This document shows, in pieces, positions 20,415-31,156 of a stretch of DNA of 36,853 nt (the stretch's first letter is position 1; each line of letters opens with the position of its first letter). The notes under the pieces are model-generated. The model was not told where the DNA came from, did not search any database, and saw nothing but the letters and a program-made list of their open reading frames with translations. This stretch comes from an uncultured Pseudomonadota bacterium (GTDB lineage: Bacteria; Oederibacteriota; Muellerivitia; Muellerivitales; Muellerivitaceae), in contig CAWJKT010000019.1 of assembly GCA_963843375.1 (NCBI GenBank), forward strand, positions 1 to 36,853, in the 5' to 3' direction. The translations under genes and the position numbers were made by a program.

Positions 20415-21593
20415 TTAACCGCCAACCCCCGCGGGAGCCATCATTTCCAACACGGCTCTATTTTCATCATGCCGCACGAATCTGCCGATATGAGCGGTGT
20501 GTTTCAAAGGCTCGGAGGATCCCCGGATGGACAGGGTCACTTCATTGGCTTCCGGATTGGGTATGTTAAACTCCTTGGCCGCCCAGGCCAGGATCTTCCG
20601 AACCGTGGTCGAGGGCGAGAAGTGGGTTTGATGCTCATGGCCATTGAAATGGACCACCACCCCAATCTTTTTCTGCGTGTGAACGTGATGGATCTTATGG
20701 CGAGGGTGTTTTGCCTCCACCCGGTGATTCGGATTTAAGGGAATATCTTCGTTTTCCAAAAAAAGGTGAGCTTCAGTCGCGGGAAAATTTCCGATCTGAG
20801 CCACGGAGACGATGATTTCCTGGAAGGTGGCCCCGGGTTTAATCGCTACCTTGACCATCCCGGCCAATCCGGCACCTTCTACCAAAATTTCTTCCTGAGC
20901 CAATAAGGCAGCTTGCGCCTTGGCCGCTTCAGCCGCCAATTGGGCCTCTTTCGCCAAACGCTCTTGATCCGCTAATCGAACTGTTTTGGCAGTGGCTTCC
21001 TCGGTCCATTTGGCATCGTTTCCTAAAATCACTTCATCAGTCAAAAGGGCCCATTGCGCCGAATTCTCTTCCTCATTCGATCCGGCCGCTTTTGCGGCCG
21101 CTTCTTCACGAGCCAATTTGGCGCTGTTGGCTAAAGTCGTTTTATCCCTTTGGTAACGGGCTCGAACCATCTGCGCCAACAGGAGAAGCAGAAGAAGCCA
21201 GAGAAGGAGCCAGGGCCAGCCATACGTGCCCCCCATAAAACTTTGGGGAAAATGGGCCGCCACTGGAGGCAATGGCTGGGAAATGGCTGGGGGCGCCGCC
21301 ACCGACGCCGCTAAAACCACCGGGAGGGCCTGAACGGCGGTCCAACCGGCGGAATGGGAAGCGATTGAGGGTTTTTCGGTTGCCTTATCAGCCGGTGGAG
21401 CGGCCGAGGCGGCTGGAACGACCTCGTTGGTTTCCGGTGCCGCAGTCGGCTCAGGATTGAGGACCGATTCGGGCGCCTTTGAACTCCGGATGTCGCTGCC
21501 AACGCAGGAGGTAAAAAACAAAGCACAAGAGCCAAGAAGAAAAACAATAAGGATGGAAGAAAAGGGATGTTTCAAGAGCGCCTCCTCAGACAT
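20415..21593 (-). CDS. Membrane-anchored tandem ubiquitin-like protein (lipoprotein signal, Pro/Ala linker, TM, coiled coil, BilA-like Ubl ending VGG)
   Basis: FFTSC lipobox-like motif (Cys30), WPWLLLWLLLLLLL TM. The last ~160 aa align along their length with 24102-24608 and end PAGVGG*. Confidence 0.85.
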   Translation of the reverse strand: MSEEALLKHPFSSILIVFLLGSCALFFTSCVGSDIRSSKAPESVLNPEPTAAPETNEVVPAASAAPPADKATEKPSIASHSAGWTAVQALPVVLAASVAAPPAISQPLPPVAAHFPQSFMGGTYGWPWLLLWLLLLLLLAQMVRARYQRDKTTLANSAKLAREEAAAKAAGSNEEENSAQWALLTDEVILGNDAKWTEEATAKTVRLADQERLAKEAQLAAEAAKAQAALLAQEEILVEGAGLAGMVKVAIKPGATFQEIIVSVAQIGNFPATEAHLFLENEDIPLNPNHRVEAKHPRHKIHHVHTQKKIGVVVHFNGHEHQTHFSPSTTVRKILAWAAKEFNIPNPEANEVTLSIRGSSEPLKHTAHIGRFVRHDENRAVLEMMAPAGVGG

Positions 21594-21800: not shown

Positions 21801-23141
21801 TCACCACGTCATTGATTCCGAATAGCCCAAGTTTTTCACTTTTAACGACTTATCGAAGTGGGTTCGGATTTCGGGAAATTCCATCGTTGAGCCGGTCAGG
21901 GTCCGAAAGGGCGGTTCCAGCGAGGCCAACCGAATCGCTTGGGTGATCACCAACGTGCTGGTGAAGACACTCACGAAGGGAACCGCCACGTTCGCCCCGG
22001 CGATTTCGGCAATCCCGCACTCCTCCTCGGGGTACTTTCGCGCCTCCTCCCGGTAGGAACGGAGGGCCTTATTCGCCTCAATTCTTTGGTTTTCCCCCGC
22101 CCCGTCATCCTTTAGGATGTCCTCGGGCCTGAAGTTTTCGTCAAAAACATTCACCCGGTAAAGATGGTAGCTGTCGGCCCTGTTCCCCAGTCCCGCGTCG
22201 ATCACATAATCGAAATTGGCTTTTCCCAGAAGTCTGCGGGTCGCTGCGTTATCCAGCCCTGAGAGGACCATTGAAGGCTCGAAATTCCTGCGCCGGGTGT
22301 TTTCGTCGAAAGGCCGGTCGTTGCGGGTCACCTTAAAGCCCATACGGAGGGCCCAGTCCTCCATGATTTTGCTTTTGCGCGCGCCCACGTCGTCATGCCC
22401 TGTCAGGACAGAAGTTCCGCAATTGGAAGGCTGAACAAAGTCGAAATCCTGGAGCAAAAGCTCGACCTCTTGGGGTTCCTTGAACGGAAGCAATCCCAGG
22501 GTCCAAAGATAGGCTTGGCCCAAATTCCCCAGGCCCAAGGCCCAAAGAGATTTGGGCAGGTAAACTTGTTTCTTCTCGGGGTTAGAATTTTGAACCGGAT
22601 CCCAGATGGAAACAGTGGAGGATTTCCGTCCGGCCCTGGGATCTCCCAAGGCGCGTTTAAAGGCTTCCGAAACCGCCAGGGACCCCGCTGCGATGCCCGC
22701 CAGGACGTTGGAACCGACTCCTAATGGCTGGCTATCATCGATAGGACGAAGACCGACTTTCCATCCGTCCCACCAGGGTTTTACCGACCAGCCCGTCCAA
22801 CCAGTTTGTGAATAGCCAATCACGATCGAGTAATCGGCCTTCACAGCCTTCTTGGCACCCAACGCGGCCGCGGCTTCCCCCACCGTTTGGTGGGGAGGCA
22901 AAGAAAGAATCAGTTTTTCGTGGACCGCTCCAGTCAGGCAAACGCCTCCCCGGAAACTGCGCACCCCTGTCACCACCGCGGTCAAGGCGGCGGCCTGAGC
23001 GGCGGGCTGGGCCGAATCCGACACGCTCAAGTGCACTTCAAGAGTTAATTGGTTGAAAAATACTTGGCCTTCCTCCAGGCCGCCCAAGCCGCTTTCCGGG
23101 TAAAGTTTGAGAAGCCGGGTCGTTTCAGGGTCGATATTCAT
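21801..23141 (-). CDS. bilD: E1-like (ThiF/HesA-family) activating enzyme, BilD-like
   Basis: GLGNLG, QDFD..SN, GLDN..TRR, DAGLG, candidate catalytic ECG..AG..VAVPFVS (Cys codon 22017-22019), extra N-terminal domain. Start ATG 23141 abuts the JAB stop. Confidence 0.88.
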   Translation of the reverse strand: MNIDPETTRLLKLYPESGLGGLEEGQVFFNQLTLEVHLSVSDSAQPAAQAAALTAVVTGVRSFRGGVCLTGAVHEKLILSLPPHQTVGEAAAALGAKKAVKADYSIVIGYSQTGWTGWSVKPWWDGWKVGLRPIDDSQPLGVGSNVLAGIAAGSLAVSEAFKRALGDPRAGRKSSTVSIWDPVQNSNPEKKQVYLPKSLWALGLGNLGQAYLWTLGLLPFKEPQEVELLLQDFDFVQPSNCGTSVLTGHDDVGARKSKIMEDWALRMGFKVTRNDRPFDENTRRRNFEPSMVLSGLDNAATRRLLGKANFDYVIDAGLGNRADSYHLYRVNVFDENFRPEDILKDDGAGENQRIEANKALRSYREEARKYPEEECGIAEIAGANVAVPFVSVFTSTLVITQAIRLASLEPPFRTLTGSTMEFPEIRTHFDKSLKVKNLGYSESMTW

Positions 23142-23142
23142 G

Positions 23143-23658
23143 TTAGGAGGGGTCCAATCGGAAATAGCGGGGACCTTCCAGTGAATGGTCGGTCCAATGG
23201 TGGTTGCCCTGGTACTCATAGAGACCGATGTGTCCGGGTAGAACGTTGTTGAGAGCGTAATGGGAAAGGATGACCGCCAAGTGCCCCGCCAGGGGCATCA
23301 TGGGATGTTCCCGATCGGACGGGCTTTGCCCGAAACCAAGGGCATGCACATGAACGTCCGCGACAACTTCCAAACCCTCGTCCCGGCATATGTTCCAAAG
23401 CGATCCATATTGGCCACCGTCGAATTCCACGATTCCTCTGTCAAAACAGTGTGGGTCTAAGTCGTCGTAATAGACGAACCGGAGGATTCGCCGGGTTTTC
23501 GCTTCCTTTTTGCCGAGCAAGAATGCCCCGCTCTCCCGGGCGTTCCCTGTACGGCGCTGAAGTTCGCGGGCTCCCCTATCCCAAAGGCTTTTCGCGCAAG
23601 CCAACCCGGGGGAAGATTCAGCGATTTTCGGATGGAATGTGGCGGTTGAGCCGTTCAT
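23143..23658 (-). CDS. bilC: JAB/JAMM metalloprotease (deubiquitinase-like), BilC-like
   Basis: RESGAFLLG and DVHVH..QSPSD (E..HxH..SxxD). ATG 23658 follows GGAGG and overlaps the E2 end. Confidence 0.9.
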   Translation of the reverse strand: MNGSTATFHPKIAESSPGLACAKSLWDRGARELQRRTGNARESGAFLLGKKEAKTRRILRFVYYDDLDPHCFDRGIVEFDGGQYGSLWNICRDEGLEVVADVHVHALGFGQSPSDREHPMMPLAGHLAVILSHYALNNVLPGHIGLYEYQGNHHWTDHSLEGPRYFRLDPS

Positions 23659-24100
23659 AAATGTCCTCCAACACAAAAGTTAAATCCCGGTCGGGGCGCC
23701 AAGCCAAATAAGGATGTTTGTTTTGGGCGTCTAAGTGCGGACCCGCTTCTTTTTCCCATGGTCGGTAAACGTGGCTTTCCTGCCAGGGCTTGAAGGGATC
23801 GAACATTTCCCGGGTTCCGTCGGAATTTTTTTTTCGAGGCCTGTTTTCTTCCCGGATTTCCCTGTCCGAATCCATCTCCCAAAGCTGGCAGGAGGGCGCC
23901 TGTCCTGGGTAGCGGTTCAAGCCGAACTTGAACCGGAACCAGATGGGAGTTCCATTGCCTTCGCCAGCATTTACCAGTATGAATAAAATGGGAAATTCGA
24001 AGGACTGGAGTCGCCAAAAACCCCTGCGGATTCCGGCTCGGAACGCAACGGAGTCCAAATCCCGTTCCACCCAATCCAGAGCAGGGTCCTGGATCGGCAT
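23618..24100 (-). CDS. bilB: E2-like conjugating-fold protein, BilB-like
   Basis: Lies between Ubl and JAB; FRAG..RG.W, YPGQAP (E2 YPxxPP-like), HP..AW.P..LTFVLEDIYERLN. Confidence 0.75.
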   Translation of the reverse strand: MPIQDPALDWVERDLDSVAFRAGIRRGFWRLQSFEFPILFILVNAGEGNGTPIWFRFKFGLNRYPGQAPSCQLWEMDSDREIREENRPRKKNSDGTREMFDPFKPWQESHVYRPWEKEAGPHLDAQNKHPYLAWRPDRDLTFVLEDIYERLNRHIPSENR

Positions 24101-24101
24101 T

Positions 24102-24608
24102 TTACCCGTTCACTTTCGCAGGGGTAATCACGTCCAACTCCAATGTGTGGCGGTCATGCGCCACGAAACGGCCGATATGGGCGTTTCCGCTCAAAGGAAC
24201 GGAGGAGCCGTGAAGGGCCAGGTATAATTCCGTCGCATCCTGCTCGGGAATGTTGAACTCATGATTCGCCCAGCCCATGACTTTCTTGACGGTGGCCGCA
24301 GGCGAGAAATGCATTTTGTGTTCCTGGCCGTTGAAGAACACCCCCACATTGATTTCCTTCTGCGTGTGGACGTGATGGACCTTGTGGCGCGGGTGCTTCG
24401 CTTCCAGGACATGGGTTGGGTTCAGGGGAACCGCTTCGTTTTCCAAAAAGAGGTAAGCTTTTTCCGGGGAAAAGTTCCCGGCCCGGGCCACGGCCACGAT
24501 GATTTCCTGCAGCTTGGCTCCGGTTTTCACTTTCACTTCGATCACCTCGGTCATTCCGGGACCTTCCACTAAAATCACTTCATCCAACTCCGTCGTTTCG
24601 TTTCGCAT
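24102..24608 (-). CDS. bilA: Tandem ubiquitin-like (ISG15-like) protein, BilA-like, ending KVNG
   Basis: First gene of the Ubl-E2-JAB-E1 operon; FSPAATVKKVMGWA, HIGRFV, C-terminal Gly. ATG 24608 after AAGGA, downstream of a sigma54 promoter. Confidence 0.85.
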   Translation of the reverse strand: MRNETTELDEVILVEGPGMTEVIEVKVKTGAKLQEIIVAVARAGNFSPEKAYLFLENEAVPLNPTHVLEAKHPRHKVHHVHTQKEINVGVFFNGQEHKMHFSPAATVKKVMGWANHEFNIPEQDATELYLALHGSSVPLSGNAHIGRFVAHDRHTLELDVITPAKVNG

Positions 24609-24659
24609 GAGGGTTCCTTCTTTCTCTAAATCTAAAATGATGGACAAGAGCAAGGTTAA

Positions 24660-27011: not shown

Positions 27012-27770
27012 ATGATGATCGTTCGAAAGTCGGAAGAGCGCCGCCACATTGAGAAAATGGGCCATAAAACCTGGATTACCTTCGACTGGGAAAATAAGTC
27101 CGACCCCCTTCAAAACGGCTTCGGTCTGCTCAAAATACTTAACGAAGAAATACTTTCCCCGGGCACCGGATTCGTGCTTCACACCCATAAGGATATGGTG
27201 ATCATCACCTATCTTGGCGAAGGCGTGATCATCTATAAAGGCCCCTTGGAAGACGCTGATTTATTGTGGGCCAAGGAATTCCACCAGGCCAACGTCACTC
27301 CCGACAGTGAACAATATGCGTTTAATGTCTCAAAAACCGAGGATGCCCATATCTTCCAAAGCGGGTTTGCCCCCCGCGAGGGTTTTTTGAAGTCGGATGG
27401 GGTCAAAAAACTCTTTACCCACGCTGAGCGTCAGGGAATTTTAAAACTGATCGCTTCTCCAGACGGAAGGGAGGGGTCGCTTCCCATACAGCAAGACGCC
27501 CAAATGTACTCCGCCTTCATTCACAAAGGAAATCACATGGTTCATCCGCTTGCGCATGGCCGAAGCGCCTGGCTTCATGTGGTAAGGGGTGAAATTCTAA
27601 TGAACGATTTCAACTTTCAATCAGGGGATGGAGTAGGTTTATCCGACGAGATTTCCATTCCCTTTACGGCCCAAATGCCCACCGAAATCCTTCTCTTTGA
27701 TCTCGCAGAAACGGTAAGCCCCAAAATGGGGATGGAGCCGCAAAAAGAAACGGTTCTTTCCCAAAAATGA
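27012..27770 (+). CDS. Pirin-like bicupin (YhhW/YhaK family), degenerate metal site
   Basis: GFGLLKILNEE..PGTGF.LHTHKDM, LIASPDGREGSLPIQQDA, GRSAWLHVVRG, EILLFDL. Start 27012 after GGAGG. Confidence 0.85.
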   Translation: MMIVRKSEERRHIEKMGHKTWITFDWENKSDPLQNGFGLLKILNEEILSPGTGFVLHTHKDMVIITYLGEGVIIYKGPLEDADLLWAKEFHQANVTPDSEQYAFNVSKTEDAHIFQSGFAPREGFLKSDGVKKLFTHAERQGILKLIASPDGREGSLPIQQDAQMYSAFIHKGNHMVHPLAHGRSAWLHVVRGEILMNDFNFQSGDGVGLSDEISIPFTAQMPTEILLFDLAETVSPKMGMEPQKETVLSQK

Positions 27771-28921
27771 GCTTCCAATTGGTTAGACAAATGGGAGCGG
27801 GGGTCCAGGGCCGTGTTGTTTTTCTGATTCTCCTGTTTCTTGGGGTGTCGGGATGTGGAACCGTTCCACCGCGCCATGAAGAGACTACGGTTCCTGATGG
27901 CGGCGGCGCCCTTCCAACACCTAATGCGCAGGCAAATGAAACCGTACTGCCTCCACCGGCCAGAACCTTTCCACCCGTTAAACCCGCTATGGTTCGCCTG
28001 CCGGTCGTGGTGATCTTTCCCCAAGGAGGCGGAGTCTTTCAACATATCGCCAACCTAATCAAAGGCGGGATCAAGCAAGCGGCACAGAAAACGGTTTTGA
28101 AATCCCGCATGAGGTCACTCTGGGCGAAGATGGAGTCGCCCATCCGCATGGACAACAACCTCTGGCTTTTAATCCGGCCAACCTCTTTGAGCGTCGGGAA
28201 GATGAGGACCGACCTGAAGCTACCCTCGACCCTTCACGCAGTTTTGGAAATGACCGCTTCGCCCGAAATCCTTTTCGGGCCCATGCCTTTAACCACCCCG
28301 GTGGAAATGCCCCCTCTTCAACCCTTCCAGCCTGGGCCGGGTATCTTTCAAGCGATGACTAATACCCACATCAATTATGAGGATGCCAACCGTTATTTTC
28401 GGGACCCCCGCATGGGTATTATCGGCAAAGTCCTGCCCGGCACGGGGGAGCGAAAGCTGACCATCGAAGGTATCCGGCTTTCCGGGTCGGGCGGCAAGGT
28501 GGTCGTCGAAGTAAAACTGCACTACAATCCTCTGATTGTTAATTTGACTGGCAATCCGGCGGACTTGACCCTTTATCTTCGGGGCACTCCCCGTTATCTT
28601 TTGAAACAGCGGGTGTTTGATTTGCCGGACCTGGAATACGACATCAAGTCCAACGATTTGATCCTTCAAGTCGCCGATTTTATTTTCAAATCGGATTTTA
28701 AGGACCAATTGCGCCGAATTGCCGTGGTCCCCGTCGGCTTAAAGATGGACATCCTCAAGGATAAAATGAGTAAAAAATTAAACCGGGCTTTGGACCGTTA
28801 TATCCATGTCCGGACCCAGGTGAATTCTTTCGAGGTATTGGACGGCTATGCGGACAACGAGGGGATTGAAGTGCGGGTGACCCTCAAGGGAACCGCAACC
28901 CTTGAAGTGATCTGGATGTAA
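27767..28921 (+). CDS. Putative lipoprotein, DUF4403-like
   Basis: Lipobox VSGC; beta-rich; clear paralog of 28960-30051. DUF4403 resemblance (LYLRGTP.Y..DLEYDIKS) is from recall only. Confidence 0.65.
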   Translation: MSFQLVRQMGAGVQGRVVFLILLFLGVSGCGTVPPRHEETTVPDGGGALPTPNAQANETVLPPPARTFPPVKPAMVRLPVVVIFPQGGGVFQHIANLIKGGIKQAAQKTVLKSRMRSLWAKMESPIRMDNNLWLLIRPTSLSVGKMRTDLKLPSTLHAVLEMTASPEILFGPMPLTTPVEMPPLQPFQPGPGIFQAMTNTHINYEDANRYFRDPRMGIIGKVLPGTGERKLTIEGIRLSGSGGKVVVEVKLHYNPLIVNLTGNPADLTLYLRGTPRYLLKQRVFDLPDLEYDIKSNDLILQVADFIFKSDFKDQLRRIAVVPVGLKMDILKDKMSKKLNRALDRYIHVRTQVNSFEVLDGYADNEGIEVRVTLKGTATLEVIWM

Positions 28922-28959: not shown

Positions 28960-30051
28960 TTAATCCCATTTCACCTGCATGGTCGCGGCTCCCCTGATGG
29001 AAATCCTCGCTTCAATCCCATCGTTGTCGGCGAATCCGTCCAGCATTTTCAAGGAATTTACCTGGGTGCTGAGGCTGATATTGTGGCTCAAGGACTTGTT
29101 TAAAACGACATTCAATCTGGCTTTAAGGGAGTCCATTTTAGGGCCGACGGGGATTCGGGTGAACTTGCGCAGTTGATTTTTTAAATCCGAATCAAGAATC
29201 CAACGGGCGATTTTAACCATTAAATCATTGGACTTGATGTCGAAGTCCAGGTCCGGAAAATCAAACGCCCGTTGCTTGGAAAGAAACCGGGGCGTGCCCC
29301 CGAGGTAAAGAGTCATTCGGGCGGGCTTGCCGGTCAAATTGACGATCAAGGGATTGTAGTGCAGTTTCACTTCAACGATTACTTTTCCGCCTGAACCGTA
29401 TAGCCTGATCCCTTCGAGGGTGAGCTTTCGGTTTCCCGTACCCGGCAAAACCATACCGATCAGTTTCAGCCGTGGATCTTGTAAAAATCGATCGGCCTCT
29501 TCATAGGTAATGCGGGTATTGCTCATCGCTTGAAATATGCCCGGCCCCTGCTGAAAAGTCCGAAGCAGAGGCATGGCAACGGGAGAGATCAAGGGTTTGG
29601 GCCCGAAGAGGATCTCGGGCGAGGCGGTCATTTCCAAAACCACATGGGTCGTCGACGCCATTTTGAGGTCGGTTCTTATCTTTCCGATACTCATGGTTTC
29701 GGGCCGGACTAAAAGCCAAATTCCCTTATCCAAGAAAACAGGCGCCTCCATATCCGCCCAAAGGCCCTTCAGCTTGGACTTCAAAACAATCCCCTGCGCC
29801 AATTGTTTGATTCCGCCTTTGAAAAGATTGGCGATATTTTGGACGACACCGCCGCCACTGGGAAAGGTAATGACCACCGGCAGGCGAACCATGGAAGATT
29901 TTACCGGTGGAAAACTTGTCACTGGAGCCGGCAGTACCGTCACCTCGTGGATCGGGAGGGTGCTGCATCCCGCAGCCAAGAAAGGCGCGAGGATCAGAAA
30001 AAGGAAGGTCCTCCTTATCCGATTCAAGGGGCGCGGAGTAGTGGTGTTCAT
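28960..30051 (-). CDS. Putative lipoprotein, DUF4403-like, convergent paralog
   Basis: Lipobox AAGC; shares MVRLPVV, LEMTASPEILFGP, EVKLHYNPLIVNLTG with 27767-28921. ATG 30051 lies just after the NHL stop. Confidence 0.7.
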   Translation of the reverse strand: MNTTTPRPLNRIRRTFLFLILAPFLAAGCSTLPIHEVTVLPAPVTSFPPVKSSMVRLPVVITFPSGGGVVQNIANLFKGGIKQLAQGIVLKSKLKGLWADMEAPVFLDKGIWLLVRPETMSIGKIRTDLKMASTTHVVLEMTASPEILFGPKPLISPVAMPLLRTFQQGPGIFQAMSNTRITYEEADRFLQDPRLKLIGMVLPGTGNRKLTLEGIRLYGSGGKVIVEVKLHYNPLIVNLTGKPARMTLYLGGTPRFLSKQRAFDFPDLDFDIKSNDLMVKIARWILDSDLKNQLRKFTRIPVGPKMDSLKARLNVVLNKSLSHNISLSTQVNSLKMLDGFADNDGIEARISIRGAATMQVKWD

Positions 30052-30055
30052 TGGG

Positions 30056-31156
30056 TCAACGGATGGGATAGCCGTTCCCGTCATAAGGGGAAGGGCTTTC
30101 GGGAGTGGGGGTGGGATCATTCGGAAACCGGGGCGGAGCGGCGGCCACGGGCCGGATGCGTACCACCCAGTTGTTGGTGATATCTGTCAAGTAAATCCGG
30201 CTGAACCGGTCGCTAGTGATTCCGTGGAACCGTGGGCTGTTTTTCAATCCTGCCCAACGACGCCCTGCCTTCCACCGCCCCAGATACTCAAACTCGTCGT
30301 CGTCGCCATTATAAAAATCCACGTGATCTCCGTCAGCGATGGCGACTAGGCGAGTCGGAGTAATGGTGGCCCCGGCGGGTTCCTTGAATTGGTAAGGACC
30401 CTCGCCGTACCAGCCTTGTTGGGTGACAGGAACGGCGCGGTTGTCGAAAACCTCGAACCGGAAATTCCCCGTGTCGGCGATGATTCCTTGGTCGATATGG
30501 TTAACCGCCATTCCCATGGGATTATTGAATAGGTAATCGGCGTTTCCAAAGGAACCCCAAACGAAATGAAACTCACCCATGGGGCTGAATATTTGGACCC
30601 GGGAATTTCCCGAATCCAAAACCCAAATATTCCCGAAATGGTCCTTGGCGATGGTACGGGGCATGTTAAATTCACCGTTGCCTGTACCCTGGCTTCCCCA
30701 AGTCGTCACCGCCATTCCATTCGCGTCCAACACCACTACCCGGTGGTTGAGGGTATCCCCCACGTAAATTTGACCCGAGGGGTGGATGAGGATTCCACTG
30801 GGCTGGTTGAACTCGGGAGGGTCTTTCCAATCGGCCTTATCCCCGAAGGTTCCAATGGTTTTGAAGGTTTTACCGTCTGGAACCCAAACGACGATCCGGT
30901 TGTTTCCCGTGTCGGCAATATAAAGCGTGCCGTCGGGAGCGATTGATAGGGCTTCGGGATCCTTCAGACGGAGGATATCGGTTCCATCCGCGCGCCAAAT
31001 CTTGTCCAAAACATAAAAAGTGTTATTTTTAGGGGCGGGTGTTGTTATGAGAGTAATTGGGGGGGTGCCGGAGGAGTTCTGTGCTCCGTACAAGTCGGGT
31101 GTTAAGAAAATGGCCGCCATCAAAAAAAACCGCCGGAAATAATTATATCGAACCAT
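30056..31156 (-). CDS. Secreted NHL-repeat beta-propeller protein
   Basis: Repeats LYIADTGNNRI, IYVGDTLNHRV, IWVLDSGNSRVQ, IIADTGNFR. Confidence 0.92.
   Translation of the reverse strand: MVRYNYFRRFFLMAAIFLTPDLYGAQNSSGTPPITLITTPAPKNNTFYVLDKIWRADGTDILRLKDPEALSIAPDGTLYIADTGNNRIVVWVPDGKTFKTIGTFGDKADWKDPPEFNQPSGILIHPSGQIYVGDTLNHRVVVLDANGMAVTTWGSQGTGNGEFNMPRTIAKDHFGNIWVLDSGNSRVQIFSPMGEFHFVWGSFGNADYLFNNPMGMAVNHIDQGIIADTGNFRFEVFDNRAVPVTQQGWYGEGPYQFKEPAGATITPTRLVAIADGDHVDFYNGDDDEFEYLGRWKAGRRWAGLKNSPRFHGITSDRFSRIYLTDITNNWVVRIRPVAAAPPRFPNDPTPTPESPSPYDGNGYPIR

Follow-up and report, generated by a model that had tools for sequence, protein, structure and literature searches.

The relay of a ubiquitin-like protein (Ubl) from a thioester on the E1 enzyme to a thioester on the E2 enzyme is regarded as the chemistry that defines ubiquitin-type conjugation, and the bacterial Bil systems are presented as an ancestor-like form of it. 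The window examined here, which is the whole 36,853-nucleotide (nt) stretch of contig CAWJKT010000019.1 from an uncultured member of the Pseudomonadota, carries a Bil operon that raises a question about this relay: its E2-like protein, BilB, has a tryptophan (Trp115) in the column where relatives have the catalytic cysteine, while the E1 (BilD) and the JAB peptidase (BilC) look intact. Non-canonical chemistry, or a pseudo-E2 role for BilB, is therefore a live question, as the first-pass annotation of this DNA had proposed. The sequence comparisons described below suggest that this state belongs to the BilB family at large, and they tentatively favor a BilB that assists conjugation without carrying the Ubl. 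Type I Bil is a bacterial ISG15-like defence system, which protects against phage through conjugation of BilA to phage proteins; the operon studied comes from Collimonas sp. OK412 (preprints of Millman et al. 2022 and Hor et al. 2023).

The gene and two of its conserved residues are as follows:

23618..24100, minus strand: BilB-type E2-fold protein of 160 amino acids (aa), without Cys at the catalytic column (Pfam DUF7665, PF24702, 6.1e-18; PADLOC BilB, 2.4e-35)
23765..23767, minus strand: BilB codon 112, Tyr, invariant (101/101), a candidate alternative nucleophile or a structural residue
23735..23737, minus strand: BilB codon 122, His (96/101), counterpart of the His beside the catalytic Cys in Bil E2s (Chambers et al., preprint)

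A Tryptophan in Place of the Catalytic Cysteine

Both the translation and the codons bear out the earlier claim that this BilB lacks the usual catalytic Cys. Its sole Cys is C71 (TGC, 23888-23890, minus strand), right behind YPGQAP (residues 64-69), and the segment HVYRPWEK has Trp115 (TGG, 23756-23758, minus strand). A HMMER search of the full library yielded 143 relatives; the 121 stored proteins with lengths of 120-190 aa were aligned with MAFFT, which revealed the family motif (L/V)-Y-x-P-[C/...]-D-R ... H ... W. The column of Trp115 comprises W34, C24, Y14, F14, V7, I6, M4, 6 gaps and 12 others, which agrees with the YxPCDR motif that the first-pass annotation had named, its active Cys falling where the window protein has Trp. 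In addition, the Cys-type BilB of a Burkholderiales genome (locus L062, an open reading frame (ORF) of 161 aa, YLPCDR) has its motif Cys at index 113, matching the C113 given for Collimonas BilB by Hor et al. The catalytic Cys and the adjacent His are said to be highly conserved across Type I and type II BilB proteins (Chambers et al., preprint).

The family was also compared with the type II proteins by hhalign, using the family alignment (A2, described below) and two type II BilB sequences, one of which (L066) is nearly identical to the type II BilB of the crystal structure and shares its numbering (8tyz_C, E 2.8e-112). Only the N-terminal half was aligned, with a probability of 42%. Since the long hhalign alignments are unreliable, the placement of Trp115 at the catalytic position relies on the motif within the family and on published numbering, without superposition; judged in this way from sequence, Trp115 occupies the canonical catalytic-Cys column of BilB.

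Distribution of Non-Cys BilB in the Family

The census was based on alignment A2, which contains 101 representatives (after visual inspection, 20 of the 121 rows were removed because they were fragments or had gaps at the motif), all 101 of them matching PF24702. In this set, which was seeded from a Trp-type query, column 115 holds W31, C22, Y14, F11, V7, I5, M3, L2, T2, S2, P1 and H1. Neither Ala, Gly nor Arg occurs there, although Gly, Arg and Ser are one base from Cys, suggesting that a bulky hydrophobic side chain has been selected and that the column has not merely decayed. Among the 79 non-Cys members, 19 contain no Cys anywhere in the sequence, and Cys is equally common in both groups at column 61, its most frequent other site (17/79 non-Cys and 8/22 Cys members). 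No other column gains Cys, and no Ser, Thr or Lys column is conserved among the 101 members. The rest of the pocket is conserved alike in the Cys and non-Cys groups (Tyr112 and Trp134 in 101/101, His122 in 96/101, Arg117 in 91/101, and Asp/Glu116), whereas Trp125 is present in 22/22 of the former and 65/79 of the latter. In the subclade of the window protein itself, Arg117 is replaced by K, Q or H (Lys here) and Trp125 by Ala. In whole-genome samples, the family profiles matched in 5 of 401 genomes of the order Burkholderiales and in 4 of 401 alphaproteobacterial genomes; a homologue search with A2 returned 15 proteins and is not usable as a census. Taken together, the alignments indicate that non-Cys BilB is a family-wide state and not a peculiarity of the window gene.

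The phylogeny of the family was examined with a quick IQ-TREE tree from which column 115 had been removed beforehand. The window BilB falls in a clade of 23 representatives with full support (Shimodaira-Hasegawa-like approximate likelihood ratio test, 100), and Trp is found in 23/23 of them. Outside this Trp clade, the residues at column 115 are intermixed and switch frequently: parsimony requires at least 39 changes overall (shuffled mean 62) and at least 16 between Cys and non-Cys (shuffled mean 20.1), at least 4 of the latter being forced by well-supported branches. Supported sister pairs that differ at this column include C/F (support 96), C/V (98) and Y/W (95).

The tryptophan itself appears authentic. 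It is present in 5/5 relatives of 40-80% identity, codon 115 is TGG in the window gene and in three orthologous genes (L003, L038 and L004), and contigs of two sequencing runs from two studies (X1 and X4) show no differing letter over the codon; these contigs, not raw reads, have a depth of about 4-5, and X1 may be the source sample. The codon TGC, named in the first-pass annotation as the alternative to look for in the reads, was thus absent from both sets of contigs, which have TGG throughout. When compared with L003 and L038, the ratio of nonsynonymous to synonymous substitution rates (dN/dS) is 0.10-0.13 for BilB, values that are approximate because dS for BilB exceeds 1, and 0.12-0.14 and 0.17-0.19 for BilA and BilC, respectively. 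The operon is under purifying selection.

Several variants were observed within the family. The window subclade has a 5-residue insert, KKNSD (residues 90-94), which is missing from 72-74 of the 79 non-Cys and from 22/22 Cys members. Four of the 101 members have Ser (P0073 and P0129) or Thr (P0047 and P0125) at column 115 and could be Bub-like oxyester E2s inside the Bil family. Some longer proteins of 310-373 aa (P0042, P0088, P0100, P0112, P0127, P0134 and P0146) have a C-terminal DUF7665 behind about 165-190 extra residues, with C or F at column 115 in those checked; an open frame of 308 aa at L070 is listed with them. These longer proteins may be BilA-BilB fusions similar to BubAB.

Predicted Fold of BilB

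An AlphaFold2 (AF2) model of BilB, for which the 101 family sequences served as input, reached a predicted local distance difference test (pLDDT) score of 92.2. With Foldseek, the top match was the E2 subunit in the crystal structures of the type II Bil E1-E2-Ubl complex (8tz0_C/D and 8tyz_C), followed by Rad6/UBE2A and other E2s, with all E-values weaker than 1e-3 and template-modelling scores up to 0.67. VIA-align superposed the model on 8tz0_C over 133 residues (Z 12.3, root-mean-square deviation 3.4), placed many canonical E2s at Z 10-11.6, and placed the Cys-less ubiquitin E2 variant (UEV) domain of Tsg101 (3obs) at Z 9.8. Searching PDB by sequence with the BilB protein and with the family profile returned nothing relevant. 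Since PADLOC, the AF2 model and the 8tz0_C match agree, the earlier assignment of an E2 fold within a Bil operon holds, and we are confident that BilB adopts the ubiquitin-conjugating (UBC, or E2) fold that the model predicts. A predicted complex of BilD and BilB scored 0.00 with no interface returned, and carries no weight either way.

The Operon and the Other Conjugation Machinery

The BilB gene is the second of five co-directional genes that run from 24653 to 20415 on the minus strand. The other four are listed below:

24102..24653, minus strand: BilA, ubiquitin-like protein (PADLOC BilA, 4.2e-34, residues 27-183 on profile positions 6-162 of 162)
23143..23676, minus strand: BilC, JAB/JAMM peptidase, ORF of 177 aa (PADLOC BilC, 2.1e-61; Pfam Prok-JAB, 0.0049, below the cut-off)
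21801..23219, minus strand: BilD, E1, ORF of 472 aa with an uncertain start (PADLOC BilD, 1.4e-119; Pfam ThiF, 1.4e-07)
20415..21593, minus strand: fifth gene, putative membrane-anchored BilA paralogue of 392 aa (PADLOC BilA, 2.6e-33 on residues 235-383)

The first four genes are tightly packed or overlapping, and a gap of 207 nt precedes the fifth. The BilA ORF encodes 183 aa from a TTG codon (the true start may be later) and ends with ...AKVNG directly at the stop, which precedes the ATG of BilB by 1 nt; Type I BilA proteins have two beta-grasp domains and a reactive C-terminal Gly. For BilC, the likely start is an ATG 18 nt downstream (MNGST...), and an HVH...SPSD motif can be read from the translation. 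BilD has a glycine-rich loop (G229/G231/G234) and Cys401-Gly402, with codon 401 at 22017-22019. Thus, the features of Type I Bil that are present comprise the Ubl-E2-JAB-E1 order, the C-terminal Gly of BilA, the E2 fold of BilB with His122, the loop and Cys of BilD and the JAMM motif of BilC; the absent one is the catalytic Cys of BilB, with Trp115 in its place. By its gene content, this is a complete Type I Bil system in the order BilA-BilB-BilC-BilD, and the PADLOC matches together with the Cys401-Gly402 of BilD support the earlier impression that E1 and JAB are intact. A NCBIfam search of the operon proteins returned nothing useful.

The product of the fifth gene combines a lipoprotein-like signal, a Pro/Ala-rich stretch, one transmembrane helix (WPWLLLWLLLLLLLA), a charged low-complexity stretch and a BilA-like C-terminal region that ends with GVGG. 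A BilA paralogue was also found downstream of BilD in the close relatives L068 (6160-7938) and L038 (3120-4543); in L068, the low-complexity stretch consists of long A/E/K/L/R repeats and the C-terminal end is ARVIG. In L069 and the other 37 W-type loci, such a paralogue went undetected. The protein could be a membrane-tethered Ubl substrate of the BilD E1.

Additional Cys-less operons were collected with sequence patterns (TVYRPWDR for W-type loci and ALYAP[YF]DRV for Y/F-type loci; the narrower alignments A4 and A6 lie behind the locus searches). As these patterns fix residue 115, the loci are unusable for counting residue types. A related-locus search with the single protein P0011 found nothing. 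The W-type set contains 38 genome loci from Proteobacteria, Acidobacteriota, Binatia and Spirochaetia, and the Y/F-type set contains 14 metagenome loci. Some W-type loci come from cultured isolates of Paraburkholderia, Novosphingobium, Mesorhizobium, Rhizobium, Acidithiobacillus and Noviherbaspirillum, examples being Paraburkholderia sediminicola LMG 24238, Novosphingobium aquimarinum and Noviherbaspirillum malthae. In both sets, the Bil genes occur in BilA-B-C-D order as far as each contig reaches, and BilA ends with Gly or with N-G plus 1-6 residues. The Cys401-Gly402 pair and the glycine-rich loop of BilD are invariant in 43/43 full-length proteins from W-, Y/F- and C-type operons, an alignment that leaves out truncated copies and two near-duplicates. 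A single DUF7665 gene is present in the genome of the window (80% complete) and in each of 5 other W-type genomes. With regard to a possible partner E2, a search for four further E2 families in the window's own genome, at this completeness, found no match to PF14455, PF14462, PF00179 or PF14461 (Metal_CEHH, Prok-E2_E, UQ_con and Prok-E2_B, respectively).

How a Cys-less BilB Might Work

The explanation that we prefer, tentatively and with a likelihood just short of even, is that the operon is a functional Type I Bil operon whose BilB serves as a non-thioester cofactor or target receptor resembling a UEV or an E3, the E1 thioester being discharged directly onto the target. BilD would adenylate the C-terminal Gly of BilA and then take BilA onto Cys401 as a thioester. 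BilB would dock on BilD in the manner of E2s and, without accepting the Ubl, would act as cofactor and target receptor; its conserved pocket (Tyr112, Pro114, the aromatic residue 115, Asp/Glu116, His122 and Trp134) would hold the acceptor lysine together with the tail of the Ubl, allowing direct discharge of the E1 thioester onto the target. BilC might trim or recycle the conjugates, and in this clade BilD may act on the membrane-anchored BilA paralogue as a second substrate. The relaxation at Trp125 in Cys-less members, and at Arg117 and Trp125 in the window subclade, as read from the alignment, is in line with such a role, and so is the report that a Ubl~E2 thioester went undetected even in the Cys-bearing Collimonas system (Hor et al., preprint).

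A broader version of this idea may also be considered, to which we would assign rather less than an even chance: that the E2 thioester step is dispensable here and in most Type I Bil systems, E1~Ubl being discharged straight onto the target lysine with BilB as an E3-like activator or receptor. If so, the nucleophile would have been lost or swapped at least four times, or about 16 times by parsimony, within one family that kept the rest of the pocket, and the question would arise whether Cys113 of Collimonas BilB is a true thioester carrier at all.

A number of observations weigh against a non-thioester BilB. First, Cys-bearing relatives need their Cys: the C113A mutant of Collimonas BilB, in which C113 is the predicted active-site Cys, loses defence (Hor et al., preprint), and Cys138 of type II BilB is required for conjugation, C138A abolishing the conjugates (Chambers et al., preprint). 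Second, residue-level equivalence of Trp115 and Cys138 was not obtained in forced global or low-mact hhalign runs, which place Tyr112 opposite Cys138 with low confidence. Third, the equal retention of Tyr112, Asp/Glu116, Arg117 and His122 without Cys fits a site that is still catalytic, including one with another nucleophile. Fourth, the census may over-count Trp because of its Trp-type seed, and the whole-genome samples without the two seed genomes contain 4 Cys-type and 3 Trp-type proteins. Fifth, resolution of the tree is weak, support being poor for 56 of its 98 inner branches. Finally, the mechanism itself is one that we infer.

The main rival, which we regard as unlikely though a serious contender, is that BilB remains a covalent carrier with a non-Cys nucleophile, either Tyr112 (as a Ubl~Tyr oxyester) or His122 (as an acyl-imidazole). 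The invariance of Tyr112 and near-invariance of His122 in Cys and non-Cys groups alike, the retention of Asp/Glu116 and Arg117 in the pocket, the low-confidence pairing of Tyr112 with the type II Cys138 and the occurrence of Ser or Thr at column 115 in 4/101 members would all suit this possibility, and Bub pathways proceed through oxyesters, Ubl~Tyr on the E1 (BubCD Y370) and Ubl~Ser on the E2 (Bub preprint). However, Tyr112 and His122 are just as invariant beside a Cys, so that their conservation needs no nucleophile role. Moreover, the Bub E1 is also without a Cys, whereas the Cys-Gly of BilD is invariant here, and a thioester-to-oxyester hand-off, although thermodynamically possible, has no precedent in the Bil family.

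It is also conceivable, but distinctly improbable in our view, that Cys-less Bil operons no longer conjugate BilA via BilB, the latter having become a regulator or inhibitor of BilD, or the whole system having been repurposed (for E1-only chemistry or as a decoy). The missing canonical nucleophile, the further changes at Arg117 and Trp125 in the window subclade, the lack of an obvious defence-island setting and the unusual membrane-anchored BilA paralogue of this clade might be explained in this way. Such a change is difficult to reconcile with the retention of four genes in order across 38 + 14 loci wherever the contig reaches, with the low dN/dS, and with the preservation of the E1 Cys, the Ubl C-terminal Gly and the JAB motif; furthermore, a regulator would not need the whole E2 pocket to be conserved.

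The remaining explanations fare much worse. Relocation of the catalytic Cys, with C71 taking the Ubl, had been suggested in the first-pass annotation and is now very improbable. C71 is the only Cys of BilB and is kept in its 5 closest relatives and in P0007 and P0032; nevertheless, the column as a whole is Cys in 7 of the 121 members (7/79 among non-Cys members) and otherwise mostly A42, G32, V21, S9, I6 and F4, and 19/79 Cys-less members have no Cys that could take over; within the same Trp clade, P0008, P0010, P0011, P0013, P0014 and P0019, for example, lack Cys altogether. C71 lies inside strand beta4, which spans residues 70-74 in the AF2 model, and hhalign, in pairing Y64...P69 with Y70...P75 of type II BilB, sets C71 opposite Val77, 61 residues before Cys138, indicating that C71 is not the counterpart of the characterised catalytic Cys.

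An oxyester nucleophile at Ser109 or the neighbouring residue 110, as in Bub E2s, was likewise put forward for Ser109 in the first-pass annotation and can be regarded as extremely improbable. Ser109 (AGC, 23774-23776, minus strand) sits 6 residues ahead of Trp115, and Thr is found at 110 in many Trp-clade members (T-V-Y-R-P-W), but neither column is conserved among the 121 members (column 109: S14, D13, G12, R12, 10 gaps, N10, E9, P9 and 32 others; column 110: A40, G15, T14, C13, H12, S6 and 21 others); the window BilB has His at 110, and its closest relatives have Gly or Ser at 109.

A sequencing or assembly error, or a decaying pseudogene, has a next to negligible probability: although TGG is one base from TGC/TGT, it is shared by four orthologues and by the contigs of two studies, Trp is found throughout the 23-member clade, and the BilB frame is intact with dN/dS about 0.1.

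Comparison with Known Systems

Eukaryotic UEVs, such as Mms2/Uev1a and the UEV domain of Tsg101, have a UBC fold without an active Cys and still work in ubiquitin transfer or binding, Mms2/Uev1a needing a Cys-bearing partner E2 (Ubc13). The window BilB resembles them in its Cys-less UBC fold and differs in that no sequence relationship is detectable and that a search of its own genome (80% complete) for DUF7665 and the four families named above found no second E2. E1-only Ubl conjugation (archaeal SAMP/UbaA and Thermus TtuB/TtuC) involves neither an E2 thioester nor an E2-fold protein, whereas the E2-fold gene is retained here under strong purifying selection.

Compared with the Type I BilABCD of Collimonas, the window operon has the same four families in the same order, a BilB that belongs to DUF7665 like the Cys-type proteins with Y-x-P-C-D-R, the E1 Cys-Gly, the Ubl C-terminal Gly and the JAB motif. 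The differences are Trp for Cys113 with no other conserved Cys, Lys for Arg117 and Ala for Trp125, as well as the extra membrane-anchored BilA paralogue downstream of BilD. The type II BilABCD of Ensifer aridi TW10 (8TYZ/8TZ0) provides the best structural match and shares the operon logic, but its BilB belongs to another sequence family (Pfam Metal_CEHH); it has Cys138 and His151, and both mutational and disulfide data point to Cys138 as the E2 nucleophile (Chambers et al., preprint).

Bub systems (6E/DUF6527) offer the precedent of an E2 fold without a catalytic Cys in a working pathway. The catalytic position of Bub E2s is invariably Ser, beside which stand a His plus Asp or a Lys plus His, and Bub operons combine a Cys-less E1 using Tyr with a DUF6527 serine protease; in the present family, Trp, Tyr, Phe, Val or Ile occupies the position, the E1 Cys is invariant and the peptidase is of JAB type. 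The family as a whole does not match a Bub-type E2 with a catalytic Ser, Ser or Thr being present at column 115 in only 4/101 members while the E1 Cys is invariant in 43/43. Searches of the Bil literature, within the parts available, found no description of a Cys-less Type I BilB; the five operons tested by Millman et al. 2022 may already include one. BilB proteins from Caulobacter, Cupriavidus, Paraburkholderia and Thiomonas are among those with demonstrated defence.

The large group of Bil operons under selection that combine an intact E1 Cys with a hydrophobic residue for the E2 Cys implies that either conjugation can proceed with a non-covalent catalytic or targeting role of the E2 fold, or these operons employ a new nucleophile. 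Cys-less Bil systems must thus either tag proteins by an undescribed route or have some other function, a question that bears on the evolution of UEV-like proteins and of E3-independent targeting. Of the possibilities raised in the first-pass annotation, non-canonical chemistry and a pseudo-E2 adaptor stay in play, whereas the relocated Cys and Ser109 do not. The question is directly testable since W-type operons exist in cultured, non-pathogenic bacteria from soil.

Genomic Surroundings

In W-type loci, a divergent Exonuclease I-like gene (RNase_T + Exonuc_X-T_C) is located upstream of the Bil operon in 21 of the 38 by BLAST clustering and in 13 by phmmer, and an XRE-family helix-turn-helix gene occurs in 13-16 of these loci; the positions concerned are L005 1552-2964 (minus strand), L008 806-1195 (minus strand) and the corresponding places in other W-type loci, and neither gene is present in the window. 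No obvious defence island surrounds the Bil operon within positions 1-36853, where its neighbours encode a leucine-rich repeat lipoprotein, a response regulator, a pirin-like protein, OmpA-like proteins, a GH94 phosphorylase, a sigma-54 activator and an AcrB-type pump. Unrelated to the BilB finding, two DUF4403 paralogues of ~385 aa that resemble each other in sequence (27767-28921, plus strand, and 28960-30120, minus strand) lie in convergent orientation next to a gene for an NHL-repeat protein.

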